From assembly GCF_036321535.1 (NCBI RefSeq), contig NC_087436.1:4030001-4094000 (forward strand): 64,000 nucleotides of DNA. Direction: 5' to 3'. Origin of the DNA: Camelus dromedarius. Its lineage: Eukaryota. The notes beneath the pieces are model-generated. The model had not been told where the DNA came from. It saw only the letters and a list, made by a program, of their open reading frames with translations, and did no database searches. Of this stretch, positions 4,422 to 49,328 are shown piece by piece (the stretch's first letter is position 1; every line of letters starts with the position of its first letter). The position numbers and the translations under genes were made by a program.

Positions 4422-4945
4422 ATTTTTTTAAGAAATGGAGAATTAAAGCAAAATGATGGAGGAATACGGAATTTTTTTAGAGGACTCAACTCAGATTTAA
4501 GATGGGGAAAAAACATCCATTTCTCAGAGGAAATCTTGAGAACTATGTAAACTGGATCTGAGATGTCTAGTCTTTTAACATTATTCAAGAATTCATATTA
4601 CCAAGTCTTAAAACTACCTGATAACCCTCAATGGTGATAGTGATCATAACAGCTGCCAACACGGATCGAGCTCTGGCTAGGACTGCTCTGTTCTGACATC
4701 TCTGCCCCTGAGGCCTCACCAGGCTGAGAGCATTAAATTCGGTCATTCATGAGCATCACGTGTAAGTCCTACATTTGTGCTTCTCACTCCCCCCTTCCCC
4801 AGCCCCTCTGAGGGAAGCACTGTTATCATCTTCCCCACCCGCAGATAAGGCCAGTGAGGCACTGAGACTAAACCCGTTCCAGGTCACATCGGCATTAAAG
4901 GACGTCTGTATTTCTGCTGTTTTGCTTTTGACAAAGGAATCTGAG

Positions 4946-5370
4946 TGTCAGCCGAGGGAGGCTGATGTGGGGTTCTAGGAGGTGAGCGGCCCAAACGAAA
5001 AAATGCACGAGGAGTTGCCATACTGCTGGACAGACTTCAGCCGGAGAATCCATGGGGTTAACAACACTTTATTGCCACAGGGAGGTGCACCCTATGATGC
5101 ACCTGTCCTGCTTTTATCTGTTTTCTGTCAGCACATGCGCGGTCTGAGTTTCTTTGTTCATCAGGCTTACAGAATATCTCTAGCACATGCGTACTTCTAT
5201 TTTCTTTGTTCTAAATCTTATATAATTGACGCATGCGTGGAGCAATTATTTACTGCATACTACAAACATGCTCTGATCGTGGCCTTGGGTCCCACGGCTA
5301 TAACTCATCTCAATGCTCCGATCGTGGCCTTGGGTCCCACGGCCTTAACTCATCTCAACACCAGCTCACA
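4946..5370 (-). repeat. 3' LTR (425 bp) with two copies of a 45-bp U3 repeat (5270-5314, 5315-5359)
   Basis: Direct repeat of 10810-11189. Preceded on the minus strand by the PPT. AATAAA at 5073-5068. Confidence 0.97.
5068..5073 (-). terminator. LTR polyadenylation signal AATAAA (second copy at 10932-10937)
   Basis: tttatt on the plus strand in both LTRs, at the position expected for R. Confidence 0.8.
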
Positions 5371-5381: not shown

Positions 5382-6534
5382 AGGTCGTGGGAACCCTAAC
5401 CCATAGAGCGGAGCATTGTGCCCAAAGGCCACAACAACAATATAGAGTACAGCATCCTACCAATACACAGACAGCAACAATAGCCAGGAGAGTTAGGCTC
5501 CATTTCCAGGAGGACGTCAAGGATGACCACCAATTCTTGAGGGGGTCTTGAGTTATATGATCTATGCGATCCAATTCCTGATCTATTTCATGCAGTGCCT
5601 TAGCTACTTCCTTCTGGTGATCTGGTATATAGATACAACATTCAATATGTAACATAGCACATGTGCCACCCTGGTTTGCAGTGAGAATATCTAATGCCAT
5701 TCTATTTTGTAAGACTACCTTTCGCATCTGGGTAGTCTTGTCTAACTATTCCTCTATAGCTCTTCTAGTAACATTCAGTACAGCTGATATGTGCTGAGCT
5801 AAAACTTCTACCTGAAATTCAACACTGATGGTCCCAGCACCAGGCAGGAACAGGGCCATGGGATAAAACCATCAAGCTGCACGCTTCCCCCGGTGCCACC
5901 GGGTGTGCAGTGGGTCCCAATTTGTGGGGTGCTCTGTCAAAGTGGGCCGGATATGTCCGGGCAAGTAAGCTCTACCCCCAAGTACAGTGCCCTGTCCATT
6001 TATCTGGGAGATAAGACCATCCGTGGATGCCATATACCCACAGATACCCTGGTGGCAGGAAATCAGTGGGTTTTGTGCCAATTAGAGGTCGTCCATCCCA
6101 CCAGGTGGAGGCATTTACATTATAAGTAATTTTGGCACACAGCTCTTCTGGGAGCCACCCCATTGTGTGGTTTGGAGCCTCGTGTTCAAACCGCTGCTCA
6201 ATACAGAGGGGGCTTAAGTTCCTCACTTTCACATGAACATTATTCATCCATCCCCACCCATTCCATACAGTCCTTCCAATTAGGGGGGGTATTGCTCCGC
6301 TCATGTCGGAGTATTTCTTCAATAGTGTTCCGCCGCAAGTCCCAGGGCGATCTCTCTGTCCTGTTGGCATTCCATCGAATCAAGGTGCTCCAATTAGCTC
6401 TGGACGCGGGGTGGAGGTGCCATGGCAGTCTATCTCCTGCGTCTACAGGAAGTTCAGTACAGACCCAACAGTGAGAGACGTTGTGGACTCAAGCGAAAGT
6501 GTGTGCCCAGGAGAACATGGTATTTGCTGTTACC
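5380..6534 (-). pseudogene. env: env (gamma-type SU/TM), disrupted
   Basis: Conceptual translation VTANTMFSWAHTFA*VHNVSHCWVCTELP... with furin site RGKR, fusion peptide WFYPMALFLPGAG, ISD LQNRMALDILTANQGGTC, CAMLHIECC (CX6CC) and TM helix SLTLLAIVAVCVLVG. Stops near 6490, 5873 and 5747; frameshifts at homopolymers near 6286 and 5976. Confidence 0.93.
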
Positions 6535-9500
6535 CTGGATGGAAGGACAGAGCAGAGGTGGACACTATGATTGGCAAATCTCTCCCTTCTGGGAGGATGC
6601 AAGCCATTTTCTCATCCTGTGAGAGTACAGTGGCAGGAAGGGCTGTTCGCCCTGGGCGGTGGTACCACATCAACCCGCCCACACTAGGTTGGTTACACTC
6701 TGGGAGAGCTTCAGGAGCTATCAGTGGAATTGCCCAAAGCTGTAGGGCTTCTGCTCCTTTAAGTAGGGACACTCCTGTTTTCCCTAGAATAACCTGCACA
6801 TCAAAAGGCCATTCCCCCACTCGTGGGGTTACCTGCAGGGCTTTCTCTAGCCCACTGCCCCATGGTTCCAAAAGGGCTAGCCAGGGGCCTTCAGTCTGGA
6901 CCTGATTCTTCCATGTCCAGGTGTCCTGTTTTCCTGAGTTCAACACCCTGGGGGCGCGTAATATTAACGCATGCCCCACTATTGAGACATCGGAGGCATC
7001 CTGCATAGGCCCAATTCTGAGCCTCCGAATAGTCCCTTGCAATAACTTTTCCAGTGGGCTCATACCTGTATGGCGAGGTTGTTCATTCAAAAGATGTACC
7101 GCCTGAGGCAAGACATTGTTCCAGCCTCGCCCTTGTGGTTTGAGAGCCCTCAGTTTGTCCTTTAATAGACCATTGTACCGTTCAATCATTCCTGCTGCTT
7201 GAGGACGGTAAGGCACATGCAATATCCAGTTAATATCATTTTCCTTGGCCCATTCCTGGGTCTGTTGGGCAGTGAAAGGGGTCCCTCTATCACTTTGTAT
7301 TTCTAAGGGAGTCCCATAGAAGGCCCGTAAAACTTCCAGTGCTCTAATAGTAGAGTCTTGTGTAGCTCGGGGCACATGGTGAGCAAAACTTAGGCCAGTA
7401 GCGGTGTCTACCGCTGTCAGCAGGTACCGCAAGCCCGTACTCAGAGCAAAGGGGCCTACGTAATCTATTTGCCATACCTGCAATGGCTGAATTCCCCGTT
7501 CAATCTTCCCCATCTGTTGGGGCCATCGCCGCCGGTGTGGGTGGTGCTTAGCACACCATGGACATTGCCGCACGGCATCTTTGGCTTCACTGTGGCTCAG
7601 GTGCAGGCCCCACCGGTCGGCTACCTGCCTCATTGTGTATGAGCCAACATGACCAAGTTTCTTATGGAGCCACGGACCTATATCGGGTCCTGGGACCATA
7701 GCTTGTACAGGACGGAGTTGGGCTAGCGCGTCAGCAGCATCATTGCCCGGTGCCAGGGCTGGGCGGTGCCCTGGTACATGGTAAACAGTATGGTGGCCTT
7801 CTTGGCCTTTGTCCCATAACTGTTTCCACATCTGTTGTCCCCACAGGGGCCGATGCCCAATCATCCAGTCTTGCAGGGCCCATTGGGGTATCCACAATGT
7901 AAGGCCTCGATATACGGCCCAACTATCTGTACATATATGCAAGGGGCTAGGTTCATTCATCAACACCAGCCATACTGCCCGTAACTCAGCCCATTGGCTG
8001 GATTGGCCTTCTCAGGTCTCATACCAGAAGGCTTCAGTGGCAGGGTGCAGTTCTACTGCAACCCAAGTGGGCGGACTGCCCTTACAAGATCCATCAGTAT
8101 ACCAAGCAGTTCCCGGGGGTGGCCCTTTCCCTTCACGAAAGGGACTGGGGACAGGGTCCACCCCTTGTTGTGGGAGGGTCTGTACATCAGGCGCAACAAA
8201 TCTCACAGGCCCTAAAAACTGCTGCAACCCTGCAGCCAAGGGGCTAGCGGTGTACTGGCTCTCTGTTCCAAATAAACACCCCACTTCGTCAGAGTTGGGG
8301 TTTGGGCAGTTCCTGATCGGGATTGCTTTGCCCATGTCTGTACCCATCCTGCAATAGGGTATGTGGTCTGCACTTGGACCTCTTGCCTCCCCGTCAGGGG
8401 TTCAGTGACAATCAAGGATGCATAAGTCGCTAGCAACTGTTTCTCAATCAGAGAATAATGACATTTAGCCCCTTTCCACAACTGAGACCAGAATCCTATG
8501 GGCACTTTCTACTGCCCATGTTTCTGCCATAAGCCCCAGCCATATCCATCACTGTCCACATGGACTGTCAAACAGAAAGGGATGTCTGGATCTATAGTGT
8601 GCAGTGCTTGCGCTTGGGCCACTGCCCTCTTAGTTTCAACAAATGCACATTCGGTCTCATCAGACCAGTTCCAGATTTCTCCCTTTTTAATCAGTTTATA
8701 CAGGGGTTTGGCTATTTGGGCCAAATGAGGAATAAACACCCGCCAGTATCCCAGAAGACCCAAATAAGTCTGTAACTGTTTAACTGTTTCAGGACGGGAA
8801 TATGCTTGGATTTTGTCTATTACTGCTTCAGGCAGCATTTTTGTCTTACCCGACCAGACAACACCCAAGAATTTGACAGAATATCCAGGTCCTTGCACTT
8901 TGTCCTCGTTCATGGCCCACCCCCAGCCCACCAGGGCTTCTCGCAGCGCTGTGGCACTGGTTTCCAAATCTGAAAGAGAATCAGAGGTTAGCATTATGTC
9001 ATCAATATAATGGAACAAGCGAACGGTATCCGGTTTGCTCCAGGTAGCCAGGTCCTGGGCCACCAGGCCATGACACAGTGTAGGGCTGTGCAGATATCCC
9101 TGCGGAAACACAACAAATGTCCATTGTCTGCCTTCCCAGGTGAAGGCAAACTGTTCTTGGCTCTCAGGGGCTATGTCTATCGAGAAGAATGCATTAGCCA
9201 GGTCAACCACATAGTGACAAGTACCCAGTTCATGGGACAGTCGGTCCATCAAATCTGTTATATTCGGCACAGCTGCATGCATGGGGGGAGTGACTTTATT
9301 CAGTTCCCGATAGTCCATTGTCATCCTCCAGGAGCCGTCTGGCTTCCGCACCGGCCATGCTGGAGAGTTATATGGGCTATGCGTAGCCCGAATTATACCG
9401 GCTTCCTCAAGCTTCAGAATAGTCTGTCCTATTTCCTCATGGCCTCCGGGCAATCGATATTGCCAGACATTCACCACTCTTGTGGCCCGTGGCAAAATCA

Positions 9501-9906: not shown

Positions 9907-10780
9907 CTAGTCTGGGAGGAAATCAGCAAAGGCCACCTCTTGGGCCTGATGGGAGGTTGGCAATGGAGTATATTGTTGCTCAGGCCATAATTTCTTCCAT
10001 AAGGCCATCAGCACCTCCAATGGCTGGCCATCTAATTTTACATGGTCCAGGCCAGCTGCCAGTAAATCACACCATATCTGCCAGCGATCTAGCTTTTGGG
10101 GCCCTCCTAAAATTGGAGCATTCCCCTTTTTCCTCCTTGGTGTGGACTTCCCTTTCTGTGTCACTGCACAGGAGGAGGGGATCTTGGACTCACCTTGAGT
10201 CTTGGCAGCATGTACCCCCTTTCAGCGCACCTCTATGTCCCCCAGACGAGCCAGAGCCTCAGTTACTTCATGAATGGGGTGGTCTACATACGGTGCTAGT
10301 AGCGCCGCCATAGTCCCAAATGTTCCCGTTGGGCCATTAGCCAAAATCAAATCTTTTATTCGAGCTGTAAGGAGCTCATCATCTGGATGCTCCCAGGGGC
10401 AGTGGGACCGGAATTACATAGGCATAGCTGCTCTCAGAGGCGGCGGAGCTAGGACCATGCAGACATCTTTCTGCTGTGCTGGGTCTCTGCTTAAGCTCCT
10501 CTTGCATCTGTAAACCTCTCATGTCTTGGCTAGCATGCCGTAAAACAGAAAAGAACATCCAGGCCACCCTCCCGGCTGCCTCTTGGTGGGCTAATGGGAC
10601 ATTATTTTCTAACAGCTCCAACGCCCTCCGAACATCATCTGGCTGGGGCGCCACTGTGTCCCAAACCTCAGGTTGAGCCCACGTCAGCAAATAGGCTGCC
10701 ACCGGGTATCATATAGAGGTAGGGGGCCACTTTGCATCCACCAGAGCATCCCCGTCAGGGGCAGGGGGTTCAGAAGGGGC

Positions 10781-10789
10781 ACTCACCTC
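10781..10789 (-). promoter_or_regulatory. Major splice donor GAG|GTGAGT immediately after the PBS
   Basis: Near-consensus donor; the exon ends at 10787. Confidence 0.75.
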
Positions 10790-10917
10790 ATCCTGCCAAC
10801 TACGCCAAGTGTCAGCCGAGGGAGGCTGATGTGGGGTTCTAGGAGGTGAGCGGCCCAAACGAAAAAATGCACGAGGAGTTGCCATACTGCTGGACAGACT
10901 TCAGCCGGAGAATCCAT
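10783..10917 (-). CDS. LTR-encoded 44-aa leader ORF, putative Env signal-peptide exon: MDSPAEVCPAVWQLLVHFFVWAAHLLEPHISLPRLTLGVVGRMR*
   Basis: ATG at 10917, open through U5 and the PBS. Its TGA lies inside the donor AG|GTGAGT. Splicing 10787 to 6534 gives ATG AG|G GTA ACA, in frame with env. Confidence 0.6.
   Translation of the reverse strand: MDSPAEVCPAVWQLLVHFFVWAAHLLEPHISLPRLTLGVVGRMR
10790..10807 (-). other. Primer-binding site for tRNA-Ser, TGGCGTAGTTGGCAGGAT
   Basis: 17/18 match to the complement of the tRNA-Ser 3' end (ATCCTGCCGACTACGCCA). The mismatch is a G:U pair. It lies 2 nt after the LTR. Confidence 0.92.
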
Positions 10918-11189
10918 GGGGTTAACAACACTTTATTGCCACAGGGAGGTGCACCCTATGATGCACCTGTCCTGCTTTTATCTGTTTTCTGTCAGCACAT
11001 GCGCGGTCTGAGTTTCTTTGTTCATCAGGCTTACGGAATATCTCTAGCACATGCGTACTTCTATTTTCTTTGTTCTAAATCTTATATAATTGACGCATGC
11101 GTGGAGCAATTATTTACTGCATACTACAAACATGCTCTGATCGTGGCCTTGGGTCCCACGGCCTTAACTCATCTCAACACCAGCTCACA
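10810..11189 (-). repeat. 5' LTR (380 bp) with one copy of the 45-bp repeat
   Basis: By eye identical to the 3' LTR except A5171/G11035 and the 45-bp unit. Followed on the minus strand by CT and the PBS. Confidence 0.97.
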
Positions 11190-11734
11190 CTGAGATATCA
11201 ATTCAAGGGAGACTGTTAAATAATCAAGTCTGCCTGGTCTTCACCTCAAAGAGCAGATACTATAAATTCCTGATGTAGGATGAGGCTGCCGCCACAAACT
11301 GACTCAGCTTGAAATTAATATCCAAGATGAAGCAGCGGATACACGTAAATATTCATGATTGTCAACTCCGCTCATGGGTCTGGGCCCTTCACTGCCTGAA
11401 CGGGGGTGAAATCCCCACCCCTGTCAGGGATGGAAGCGCGGCTCTTCCCAGTGTCACCCAGGCTTCATGGGCTGTTTCCCCCCACAGGCTGTCCTCAATG
11501 ATTAAAAAGCTCTCAAGATTTTTACACCATGCAAAACTGAAAGACATTTCTGCAGATGGAGCACTTTCTCAGGCTTAAACCTTTTTTGCCTACACTCAGC
11601 AAGGGGGAAAAAAGAAACATGACTCTGCAAAGTCTCTGAGCCTCACCACTCACAGGAATAGAAAGGCCATAGCAGAAGATGACACTTCACATCGCAGGGT
11701 GAGAACAAAATAAAGCGGCCCCAACAACAGGCAC

Positions 11735-40212: not shown

Positions 40213-42019
40213 CTATAAAGAAAACCAAAATAAAAGATCGCTCACACTCTAGCTCGGTGACCTGAAGAATCATAGTTTTTGCCATCTACTGAGTGCAAGT
40301 CCCTGCACAGAGCATGCTGACAAGCACTGGAAATAAGAGACATCACTTCTGAACACATACAATTAAACCCAAGGTCTCAAGTGAGGGACCTTGGACCATC
40401 CTGAAAAGACATCGTTCCCTGAGAATCCTCAGTATTGCTGAATCACACACCAGTGTTTCTCATTGGGACACTCAGATCATCTTCATCAGAATTAGTTAAA
40501 GTGCTTCTTAAAATGCAGGATTCTGGGGTGCAGACCCTCAGGGTCTCCAGAGGTAGGGACCTGTAGTCTGTATTTTTAGAGCAGCCGAGATCACTGAACA
40601 CGCCCAGGTTTAGCACCGCGGTCTACATCGTGTCACCTGAGCATCGACAATGCTGTCTCACGGGGTAGGCGGGTTGCCATGTGTGTCAGGGTGCTGTCCT
40701 ACCCACGAGACTCCCCTGATTCTCAGAACTGACAGTGCTGCCCCATTGGGCAAAAAATACCACCATTTCACAATGCATACGCAGGGCGCCCGACTGACAG
40801 ATACAATCAGTGATGGGAGAGGGGACAAAACTCATGTTCCTGATCCCTTGTTTCAATTACTGTGGGATGAATGATCAATTCAAGGGTAATAAATCAGTGT
40901 ATGAGTGAATAACATGACTCTCGTTAGTCCCACGAGTGCCTGGAAGAGCGAGCCTGGGCACACTGAGAATCATAACAGCCCATCTACTTAATTGTCATCC
41001 TCCCCAGATTTATGTAAAGGTTACTTCCACCCAGGCAGTGACCCCTGAAGGGCAAGAATCATGTCTGAACACACTCTCAAATACAGAACAGAACCTGACA
41101 ACAATTAGGCTCTGGGGTCTGTGTTTAGCGAGTGTGGAATCTCAGTGATTCCAGCTCTTAGACCTTGCCTTCCCATCCCACCCCTCACGATATGGCCCTT
41201 ATGACCAGCTCTCCCGGGGCTGGGGCCATGGAACCCATTTACAGGACTGGAAGAATCTGATCATGTAAACCATCCCCCAGAATATCATCAAGAGTCACCT
41301 GCATTTCAGGGATCAGTAATCCCAGAAGCTTTGCAGTTCAGGCAGCTGAGGGATTTTTATATCAGCTCTGTCTTCTACTGTGACTGCCTGGGTGACTTCA
41401 GACAAGGAATTCTCAAAAGCCTGAGCTTTTCCTTTCAGGAATAATCTAATTAACAAATCTCATTGACCACTCAACAAATGTGATGTGAAGATCAATGATT
41501 TACACAGGAGTACAACATTCACTAGGTCGTGGATTTAGAATCAGAGAAAAATCATTTGAGAAAGATTGACAGAATGTAGCTTTAATGCAAATTTAAGTAT
41601 TCTTACCTTTTGGTAAATCATCTTCCCCTACTTATCACTTCACCCAAGTTCAAAATATATTTGAGAACAGGGATGAGTGTGCCAGCAATCTGGGACCCAA
41701 TAACTTAAAATGTCACCTAGGAAAAAGAGGGGAGTAACACATTTTTAAAAAGCATGGTGAGGATGGCGGGGCCATCCCCCAACTCCAGACTAAGAATCTC
41801 TGAGTAATAGCTTTCCTGCCTGCCTGGGGCATCAGTTGATGTGAAAACCCACCCAGAAACCTCACTGTCCAGCAGCTCTTCCGTAACACAGGCTACACTT
41901 TCTCAGAATTAAGAATTGGGGCCAGTAACCACTTCGCTGAAGAATAAACACAAAGGAGAACAAGAGAGTTCTGCCCCTTCCCAGGGGAGAGCCCAGACCT
42001 TGGGCTGCATGCACTGCCA

Positions 42020-44112
42020 CCACCTCCCAGGAGAAGAATAAACTGGAGAAGGGCGTTCTGCGAAACTGGGGCAGCAAAGGTTGAGATGAGAACAAATTGA
42101 CCAGCTGGCCAGGGACAGCACCCTTCGTCGCTGCCTTGGCAGCTGCCTCCGCCCCCTCAGCACATCCTGCCCACCTCCGGTGGCTAAGCTGTCAGGGAAA
42201 CTGTGCTTTGCGACCTGGGGCAAAAGAGGCTGCCCCCAGGCCAAGCTGCGGAAGAGATGGGAGCTAAACCACCAGCTCCCAAGCGGCAGGCTCCATACCC
42301 CCGCCAACACCCCGCCGCCACCGCACCCTACGGCAACCCCGGGGCAATATGACCCGGAGAAGCGTGACCTGGGAATGAGGGGCGGCCACGTCAGGCCTCC
42401 AGAGAGATGGGAGCTTATCCTCCAGCTCGCCAGGGGCAGCCCCCCTCTCCTCTCCACCACCTGATCTCACCGCGCCCACCTCCCAGGAGCAACCTGACCG
42501 GGTGTGGGGTGTCAGGCGAATCTTGCGCGGGAGAGGCCATCCCCAGGCCAGGTCAGGGGAGAGGAGAAGAAGTGGCCCCATTAGGACGGGCAGCCGGCCG
42601 TCTCAGCTGCCTCTGCCCCTCGACGGGATCGCGCCCGCCTCCCAGGAGCAAGCTGATCTGGAGACGGGCATCCAGCTTCTTGGGCAGCAGAGGACGCCCC
42701 CAGGATTGGCAGCGGGGAAGAGGAGAGCAAATTGACAGGCTCCGCGCTGAGGTCTTCTACCTCCGCCGTTGCCACCCCCGCACCTTAAAGGCACCGCCCA
42801 GGGCGCCCCTCCCCCTGCAGGCTGAATGGGACAGGCGTGTCTGGTGATCTGGGGCAGGAGAGGCCACTCCCACACCAGGCCATCGGGGAGGCGGGAGCCA
42901 ATCCACCAGCTCCCCAAGGCAGCCCCCTACCCCCGCAGCAGCCACCACTCTTGCCCCCTGACCTCACGGTGGCCTCCTCTAGGGAGCAGGCTGACCTGGA
43001 GATGGACGTCCGGTGAACTTGGGACAACAGGGACCGCCCCCAGGGCAAACCATGGGGGGAAATGGGAGCAAATGGACCGGCTCCATGGGAAAACCTGCCG
43101 CTGCTGCCACCACCCCCAACGTACCATGCCCGCCTCCTGGGGTCAGGCCGACTAGGATACACGTGTTCCGTAACCCAGGGCAACAGAGACCGCCCCCAGG
43201 ACAAGCCGCGGGGAAGATGGGAGCAAATGTGCCCGCTCCCCCGCTGCAGGCCCCCGACCCCCGCCGCCCGTGCACCCTGACTACCCTGCCTCCTGCCCCC
43301 AGCAGGCAAAGTGGGACAGGGGTGTCCGGGGACCTGGCGCAGCAGAGGCCGCCTGCAGGCCACGCGGCACAGACATGGGAGCTAATTCACAAGCTCCCAA
43401 GGGGCAGCCTCCCTATCCCCGCAGCCACCACCTTACCAGCCCCCTGACTGCACCGCACCCATCTCCCAGGAGCAAGCTCACCTGGAGTCCAACATCTGGC
43501 GAATCTCCGGCGGCCAAGGTCGCCCCCAGGCCAGGCCGCGGGGGAGAGAAGAAATGGAGTAACTCCTTGGAACGGACCCCCTCACCCTGCAGCCGCCGCC
43601 GCCGCCTCTCAGGAGCAAGCTCACTTGGAGACTGGCGTCCCGCCTCTAAGGCAGCAGAAGCCGCCCCTGGCTCCGCCGCGGGGGAGAGCGGAGCGAATTG
43701 ACCGGCTTCCGCGCGGCAGCCCCCCTACCCCCGTGGGCCCCGCACATTAATGGCACCGTCCCCACTCCCCACTCAGCAAGCTGAGTGGGACAGGCGTGTC
43801 CGGCGACCTGGGGCAGCAGAGGCCGCTCCCAGGCCCGGCAGCCGGGAGAAGGCAGCTATTCCACCAGTTCACCAGGGGCAGCCCCGCTCCGCCCCCCTGC
43901 CGCTGCCGCCGCCCTCTGACCTAACTACCCCACCTCCCAGGAGCAAGCTTACCTGGAGTCCAACATCTGGCGAATCTCCGGCGGCCAAGGTCACCCTAGG
44001 CCAGGCTGCAGGGAAGAGAAGAAATCGACCGGCTTGCCCGGGCAGCCTCCCACACGCCGCCGCCTCCGCCGCTCCAAACCATTGCACTAGCCTCCCGGGG
44101 TCAGGCTGACTG
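42020..44112. repeat. CpG-rich degenerate tandem array, about 13-14 units of ~160 bp
   Basis: A CCTCCCAGGAGCAAGCTGA-like anchor recurs near 42022, 42173, 42335, 42478, 42637, 42808, 42973, 43132, 43295, 43461, 43605, 43770, 43932 and 44090. Confidence 0.85.
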
Positions 44113-49220: not shown

Positions 49221-49328
49221 TTTTTTTGTGGGAGGTAATTTATTTATTTTAATGAAGGTGCTGGGGATTGAACCCAGGATCTCTTGCATGCTAAGCATGC
49301 GCCCTACCACTGAACTACACCCACCCCC
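49221..49328 (-). mobile_element. tRNA-derived SINE (camelid Vic-1-like)
   Basis: Reverse complement of the same SINE (ggggattgaacccagg...ctaagcatgcgccctaccactgaactac). Confidence 0.8.

Follow-up and report, generated by a model that had tools for sequence, protein, structure and literature searches.

How does a retrovirus make its Env protein when the env gene has neither a start codon nor a signal peptide of its own? The question is raised by a defective endogenous retrovirus (ERV) on the minus strand of a 64,000-nucleotide stretch of the dromedary genome (Camelus dromedarius, assembly GCF_036321535.1, contig NC_087436.1, positions 4,030,001 to 4,094,000), which we call the window and in whose coordinates all positions are given. 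A retroviral env gene is usually assumed to have a start codon and a signal peptide of its own immediately past a single splice acceptor, and this is the basis on which ERV screens call an env gene intact. In the provirus studied here, the env frame upstream of its acceptor meets a stop 26 codons back and contains no ATG and no hydrophobic run, as the original prediction from the DNA sequence had stated. That prediction held that the 5' long terminal repeat (LTR) supplies an Env leader, joined to env by one splice, and, in another frame, the N-terminus of Gag. We show that transcripts of the family join the major splice donor at 10787 to a 120-nt mini-exon (8969-8850) within the reverse transcriptase (RT) coding region and from there to the env acceptor at 6534. 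The earlier observation was largely right; its mechanism needs two splices and a signal peptide overprinted on RT in the mini-exon. For the whole explanation, in which two splices, the signal peptide of the RT mini-exon and two starts in the LTR are combined, we estimate a probability of about 0.55. Within it, the two LTR starts are plausible but unproven.

Two splices and a mini-exon inside the reverse transcriptase

The splicing path uses three elements (a slash marks the splice site):

10781..10789, minus strand: major splice donor GAG/GTGAGT; the exon ends at 10787, three bases past the primer-binding site (PBS)
8850..8969, minus strand: mini-exon of 120 nt inside RT, just past the YIDD motif, flanked by ...ttctctttcag/ and /gtaaga
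6530..6536, minus strand: env acceptor ...tccatccag/G, with its AG at 6536-6535 and the exon running from 6534; it overlaps the pol stop TAA at 6532-6530

Three RNA-seq runs from three studies (X8, X18 and X19) and the DNA run X2 were analysed as assembled contigs on the provirus, and 13 joints were listed across the four runs. The joint 10787^8969 (GT..AG on the minus strand) was found in X18 and X19, with one contig each, and was absent from X2; in X8 it occurred at a depth of 163.5, from a copy whose PBS differs. The joint 8850^6534 (GT..AG) was likewise found in X18 and X19 and was absent from X2. The two-splice path is supported by RNA contigs from two studies and by NCBI gene models of camels and alpaca, which are independent of the RNA contigs analysed. 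Differences in contig depth, including a raised bin over the mini-exon, were left out of the evidence. On its acceptor side the mini-exon is preceded by ctaac and a pyrimidine tract ending in cag/, and its donor side reads /gtaaga. It is open in both the pol frame and the env (+1) frame, and the env frame encodes a hydrophobic stretch.

The predicted env acceptor at 6535/6534 is present and is used in RNA, as is donor 10787. However, the single splice 10787^6534 that had been postulated was absent among the 13 joints, where 10787^8969 and 8850^6534 were seen instead; as contigs drop rare forms, this is absence of evidence only. The frame from the ATG at 10917, when joined from 10787 to 6534, is in phase with the CWVC-containing env frame, as had been claimed, and since 120 is divisible by three this phase is kept via the mini-exon. 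Exon 1, mini-exon and env form one frame, apart from the stops of the window copy itself. Seven of nine camelid Env-bearing database proteins compared (P0002, P0003, P0004 and P0103-P0106) begin at the Met equivalent to 10917 and contain the mini-exon in the env frame, P0003 with an additional gag-derived exon. P0001 and P0110, both from a single dromedary locus, do not: they have other starts and contain the mini-exon in the frame of pol.

Other splice forms and variants occur in the family. The joint 10194^8969 (GT..AG) was found in X8 and was absent from X2, and additional donors and an exon internal to gag are in use (10194 in the window; P0003, P0006, P0101 and P0107). One alpaca model splices exon 1, read in the frame of the ATG at 10885, in frame to mid-gag, which predicts a Gag without its N-terminal domain, and other models of the P0003/P0006/P0101/P0107 group connect gag with the mini-exon, read in the pol frame, and end at the pol TAA. 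Loose ends at 8850 in X8 and X18 join the mini-exon donor to sequence unlike anything near 6534 at 90% likeness, which suggests another acceptor in a divergent copy or a host gene. Two PBS versions of equal length exist among camelid copies (the X8 contig; the X18 loose end 8971/10807; P0004 and P0005), both of which retain the donor and an ATG at the PBS edge. We assume that the two versions may match two tRNA-Ser isoacceptors.

The Env signal peptide

Signal peptides were judged by Kyte-Doolittle hydropathy and the -3/-1 rule only. The 11-residue hydropathy maximum is 2.47 and lies in the mini-exon stretch just before VTA/N(T). The original prediction had placed a candidate signal-peptide core in the peptide encoded by U5, the unique 5' region of the LTR, but the maximum there is 1.82 and this assignment is not upheld. 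Small residues occupy positions -3 and -1 before NT in camelid and sloth sequences alike. The sloth protein, an intact Env of 426 amino acids (aa; P0007, XP_037699820; TLV_coat, 8.9e-20), was found by a profile-free HMMER search that used the alpaca protein as query. The first residues of the sloth Env align with the camelid mini-exon stretch, and its Met stands at a Val/Ala position inside the mini-exon. In the camelid copies the env frame of the mini-exon contains no Met, and the only in-frame ATGs for Env are therefore those at 10917 and 10791. Three ENA-derived proteins begin with a Met a few residues before the signal-peptide motif, which the orangutan models also bear.

The N-terminus of the sloth protein is codon-compatible with the camelid RT peptide of the hidden frame at 15 of 22 positions, compared with 10 of 22 identical residues in the env frame; the shuffle mean was 3.3, and none of 5000 shuffles reached 15. 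For orangutan P0014 the corresponding values are 24/38 (hidden frame, codon-compatible) and 13/38 (env frame, identical). The hidden frame is better preserved than the visible one, which is what one would expect of an exon that codes for RT or did so until recently. Neither viral contigs, scanned with the RT piece, nor metagenome contigs, scanned with the RT piece and the sloth-plus-Logan Env alignment, yielded DNA of these relatives. That the signal-peptide exon of sloth and primates would lie inside RT is a claim that rests on codon-compatibility, not on their DNA. The primate models P0014 and P0097 (orangutan) and P0053 run from an upstream exon through the RT mini-exon to env. Their upstream stretch may be derived from the PBS, which would then be read in the other frame, and this would hint at open leader frames throughout the lineage.

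Candidate start codons in the 5' LTR

The 5' end of the provirus contains the following elements, where ORF stands for open reading frame:

10783..10917, minus strand: leader ORF, ATG 10917 (cccATGG), 44 codons, ending at the TGA at 10785-10783 in the donor; frame 0
10709..10885, minus strand: second ORF, ATG 10885-10883 (agtATGG, strong context), 58 codons; gag frame
10789..10791, minus strand: third ATG, overlapping the PBS at its 3' edge; frame 0, two codons ahead of the donor
10790..10807, minus strand: PBS, 18 nt, begins with TGG, 2 bases past the LTR
10932..10937, minus strand: poly(A) signal AATAAA of the 5' LTR
10388..10708, minus strand: N-terminal part of gag (YPVAAYLL...), bounded by an internal gag deletion at 10387/10388

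ATG 10917 sits 15 nt past AATAAA, at a CA dinucleotide. As placed by AATAAA, the R/U5 border would be near 10917, so that by LTR logic all three ATGs (10917, 10885 and 10791) would fall in the 5' leader. Both candidate TATA strings of the original prediction are present where it had placed them. The PBS, which may be complementary to the 3' end of a tRNA-Ser, lies within both candidate reading frames.

The ORF from ATG 10917 was verified on the minus strand and ends at the TGA inside the donor. Its N-terminus recurs in P0002, P0003, P0004, P0103-P0106 and P0088. The residues RMR, which include the Met of ATG 10791, are present in all camelid leader-bearing proteins examined that reach the end of exon 1; P0088 leaves the frame earlier. 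The frame from 10917 is open in the window, in P0002/P0003, in P0088 and in the 304-aa ORF of both species, despite up to 12/44 substitutions. This 304-aa ORF consists of leader, mini-exon and surface subunit (SU), is the counterpart of window 10917-5875, and is shared by alpaca and Camelus models (P0004, P0103, P0104 and P0106). It ends directly past a degenerate furin site, has CWVY in place of CWVC, and may represent a conserved SU-only gene.

The frame from ATG 10885 crosses U5, the PBS and the donor and has no other in-frame ATG before YPVAAYLL, as had been proposed. In this copy it is not open into gag, since the TGA at 10711-10709 lies directly before YPVAAYLL. This codon is read through in all three other camelid proteins that cover it (P0101, P0107 and P0005), and P0101 and P0107 begin at the Met equivalent to 10885 and continue into gag by way of the PBS and the unspliced donor. 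After ATG 10885 the frame has no further ATG until 10558, 109 codons on. A run of these 109 codons with no stop, as in the other copies, arises in 2.4% of mononucleotide shuffles and in 0.4% of sequences simulated with a first-order Markov model, and the other two frames over the same span contain 4 and 9 stops. Nine in-frame CTG/GTG/ACG codons lie past the donor, between 10786 and 10567, so that Gag could also start at a non-AUG codon.

The window copy differs from the expressed copies by several defects. Its env frame contains in-frame stops at 6491-6489, 5874-5872 and 5748-5746 and changes frame at a C-run near 6290 and a G-run near 5975. The spliced env frame had been read correctly in its phase, but the TGA at 6491-6489, fourteen codons past the acceptor, had been passed over. 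Every covering contig in all four runs has a sense codon at 6491 and 5872; at 5747 the codon is sense in the RNA contigs and in about half of the DNA depth. A pol base that is missing after 8256 in the window is present in all RNA contigs. The internal gag deletion is read from loose ends at 10387/10388 in X8, X18 and X19 and amounts to about 200 codons in comparison with P0006 and P0101. The 5' and 3' LTR show 3 mismatches over 370 aligned nucleotides (pairwise alignment). Given LTRs this similar, most defects probably predate integration, which suggests mobilisation in trans.

We propose that the core hydrophobic part of the Env signal peptide is specified by the mini-exon, in a frame one base away from that of pol, and that cleavage takes place near VTA/N. 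The camelid Env frame would start at an AUG of exon 1, either the one at the R/U5 border (10917) or the one at the PBS edge (10791), whereas Gag would start at AUG 10885 in U5, in a different frame and on unspliced RNA. Translation would then cover U5 and the PBS in two frames. For Gag, AUG 10917 would be the start of an overlapping upstream ORF, and AUG 10885 would open a dead end on the env mRNA, where its ORF of 52 codons terminates in the mini-exon. If the signal-peptide exon does lie inside RT, surveys based on ORFs would misjudge which ERV-S env genes function, the evolution of RT in the mini-exon stretch would be constrained by two proteins, and expression of Env would need two splices. 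If Gag and Env both start in U5 and the PBS is read in two frames, this would make the region an extreme example of sequence with several uses in a vertebrate retrovirus, and a natural system for the study of leaky scanning.

Several observations weigh against this explanation. A 43-codon open frame of like composition occurs in 24% of shuffles, so that the leader ORF alone is not significant, and the env frame of the mini-exon is open by chance in 15% of shuffles. AUG 10917 has a C at -3 (with a G at +4), and the strong AUG 10885 separates it from AUG 10791. In the 304-aa ORF, alpaca and camel differ at 5/44 positions in exon 1 and 3/40 in the mini-exon compared with 6-7/220 in SU, which indicates that the leader is weakly constrained, and the camel version has an Arg within its hydrophobic core. 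P0009, P0037, P0062 and P0071 are predicted with a contiguous N-terminus from the pol tail and not with the mini-exon peptide; they look like unspliced conceptual ORFs and leave room for another design in some lineages. The joints have anchors of 26-30 letters, and such short sides are weak. Gene-model pipelines generally favour long ORFs, and the models therefore show continuity of the frame, not its use. Finally, the window copy itself is unable to make Gag, Pol or Env, and translation from either LTR start is inferred.

An alternative that we consider rather unlikely accepts the splicing and regards the LTR ORFs as by-products. The mini-exon Met would have been lost, Env would be unmade or would start at a non-AUG codon in the mini-exon, Gag would start at a near-cognate codon past the donor or at ATG 10558, and the family would spread without its own Env. 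The chance level of 0.24 for the leader ORF and the exon-1 peptide, which evolves about four times faster than SU, fit this alternative, as do the Val codon aligned with the sloth Met, which has G at -3 and +4, and the nine in-frame CTG/GTG/ACG codons from 10786 to 10567. The gag deletion and the env defects at integration, with LTRs that differ at 3/370 positions, also argue for mobilisation in trans. Against it, the 10917 frame stays open across copies in spite of up to 12/44 substitutions, and ATG 10791 is retained in all compared copies that reach it. In addition, expressed copies are sense at all three env stops of the window, and the 109-codon open run before ATG 10558 is improbable by chance.

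Two further alternatives concern the mini-exon itself. It could be cryptic in a decaying element, the spliced RNAs being non-coding and the likeness of the Env N-termini being RT conservation misread by annotation pipelines. RT constraint alone would preserve the hidden-frame peptide, and other joints and donors exist, for example 10194^8969 and the loose ends at 8850. Still, we consider this highly improbable, given the presence, within coding sequence, of a ctaac that resembles a branch point, of a pyrimidine tract and of a gtaaga donor, and given a length that preserves the phase, an env-frame product that ends in a signal-peptide-like h-region with a small -3/-1 site at the start of mature SU, and the sole start of an otherwise intact 426-aa sloth Env at this place. 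The literal model of the original prediction, with the single splice 10787^6534 and the U5-encoded WQLLVHFFVWAA core as the Env signal peptide, is likewise highly improbable. Although its phase is correct, the U5 peptide is moderately hydrophobic (maximum 1.82) and rare isoforms are dropped from contigs, its joint is absent among the 13 listed in four runs, 9/9 camelid models contain the mini-exon, the stretch homologous to the N-terminus of the sloth Env is in the mini-exon, and the U5 core lies about 25 residues from the junction.

We thus favour the explanation with two splices, a signal peptide from the RT mini-exon and two LTR starts for the camelid copies. Its extension to a mammalian ERV-S lineage that comprises camelids, sloth and an orangutan locus is tentative, and we give it somewhat less than an even chance. 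Such a lineage would have a doubly spliced env mRNA and a signal peptide overprinted on RT in the 120-nt mini-exon. In camelids, Gag and Env would begin in the 5' LTR in two overlapping frames with a doubly coding PBS, and the choice of start together with splicing would select the product.

The provirus, its family and comparable systems

The remaining features of the provirus are:

6,246 bp, minus strand: provirus, a defective copy
10810..11189, minus strand: 5' LTR, 380 nt, TG...CA, ends fixed by the CTCAG target duplication
4946..5370, minus strand: 3' LTR, 425 nt, TG...CA, preceded by the polypurine tract AGGGGGTGGAA
11190..11194 (5' copy) and 4941-4945 (3' copy), minus strand: target-site duplication CTCAG, 5 bp, read directly
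5383..6534, minus strand: env, with a short SU with N-terminal CWVC, a furin-like RGKR and a gamma-type transmembrane subunit (TM) with CX6CC

The 3' LTR carries a 45-nt tandem duplication near the start of U3 (5314-5370) that the 5' LTR does not have. Protease, RT, RNase H and integrase were matched in the pol pieces (Pfam), and the RT active site in the pol translation is YIDD (...FHYIDDIML...). Against solved structures, in a library that holds no ERV-L sequence, the best match of the RT is an MLV-type (murine leukaemia virus) RT (7e-48), followed by a foamy virus RT (1.6e-37). The dUTPase family had no match in the 9 ORF pieces scanned. Env is of the gamma type, with CWVC in SU and CX6CC in TM, and the TM piece matches TLV_coat (1.2e-12, Pfam). 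The closest database proteins are NCBI models from Camelus and Vicugna with 81-90% identity. The family is transcribed and young.

The element is best explained as a defective copy, integrated recently, from an ERV family that is ERV-S-like (class III-related), and its earlier assignment to ERV-S agrees with the 5-bp target duplication and the YIDD reverse transcriptase. In the accessible part of the XtERV-S account, YIDD is termed typical of class III ERV-L-like elements (PMC8278194). From that part and the accessible part of the account of the rhinoceros element ERV-S.1-Dbi, a 5-bp target duplication and a tRNA-Ser PBS are features of both elements (PMC8278194; bioRxiv 10.1101/2024.03.17.585361). 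As far as these parts go, the likeness of the window element to XtERV-S and the black rhinoceros ERV-S.1-Dbi extends to the 5-bp duplication, YIDD in the RT, a short Env of the gamma type that has an N-terminal CXXC, LTRs that are nearly identical, and recent activity. XtERV-S had been named as a relative in which the shared LTR design might be sought, but the same part of its account gives it an env ATG of its own with a signal peptide 19 residues long, a donor that lies upstream of the PBS and, before gag, a leader of 158 bp (PMC8278194), and it does not match. An RT mini-exon or start codons in the LTR are not mentioned in the accessible parts of either account, and that of ERV-S.1-Dbi does not discuss env expression (PMC8278194; bioRxiv 10.1101/2024.03.17.585361). 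Orf-x2 of XtERV-S was rejected as a counterpart of the mini-exon because, in the part of the account available, it lies in integrase. In the literature searched, whose coverage is incomplete so that a prior description may exist, we found no description of an env exon embedded in RT or of Gag and Env starts inside the LTR for ERV-S.

The likeness to HIV-1 (human immunodeficiency virus 1) lies in a short exon with its own acceptor and donor within the polymerase-region ORF, between the major donor and a downstream acceptor. HIV-1 has small non-coding internal exons in the pol/vif region that are included in subgenomic mRNAs; unlike these, the mini-exon of the window would be translated, in a frame that overlaps RT. 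A Gag frame that begins upstream of the conventional leader is shared with yeast Ty1, whose Gag ORF begins within the 5' LTR and continues across the PBS, and with the glyco-Gag of MLV, which is made from an upstream CUG. However, Ty1 lacks env and does not belong to the vertebrate retroviruses, and the glyco-Gag start is downstream of the PBS. Foamy virus Env has a leader peptide. If 10917 is used, the pre-sequence of the window Env would comprise 87 residues with the hydrophobic core at its end, comparable to the long leaders of foamy virus and of mouse mammary tumour virus, for which the accessible part of one account gives an Env signal peptide of 98 aa (PMC8725593); unlike in the window, these leaders are contiguous with env.

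Avian sarcoma and leukosis virus (ASLV) offers a close parallel for an Env initiator upstream of the major donor that is spliced in frame to an env body without its own start. In ASLV and Rous sarcoma virus, according to the accessible part of one report, the first six codons, upstream of the donor, are common to Gag and the Env signal peptide (PMC8220723). In ASLV, Gag and Env share an AUG and a reading frame and there is one splice, whereas in the window the frame of the Env-phase AUGs (10917 and 10791) differs from that of the Gag-phase AUG (10885), 10917 and 10885 lie in the LTR upstream of the PBS, two splices are used and the hydrophobic core would come from a separate exon.

NCBI names the alpaca, camel and sloth proteins after ERVPb1, which probably reflects similarity only. 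Human ERVPb1 has a 666-aa Env ORF with its own ATG in exon 2, as given in the accessible part of its description (PMC8123466). ERVPb1/HERV-P(b) was rejected as the family, as the Env considered here has about 430-490 aa and a mini-exon N-terminus.

The joint 4940^11190, found in RNA contigs of X8 and X18, resembles an empty allele, but the flanks (4700-4940 and 11195-11400) have 10-20x the depth of the provirus in the DNA run, and the joint may stem from other copies of a repeat in the flanks. The provirus therefore probably lies inside a high-copy repeat, and insertional polymorphism is not claimed. No second provirus copy was found within the window. Elsewhere in the window, the only tRNA that ARAGORN finds is a tRNA-Ala (AGC) gene at 49253-49324 on the minus strand, and the stretch 42001-44000 is GC-rich (GC 0.67), possibly the CpG island of a host gene.

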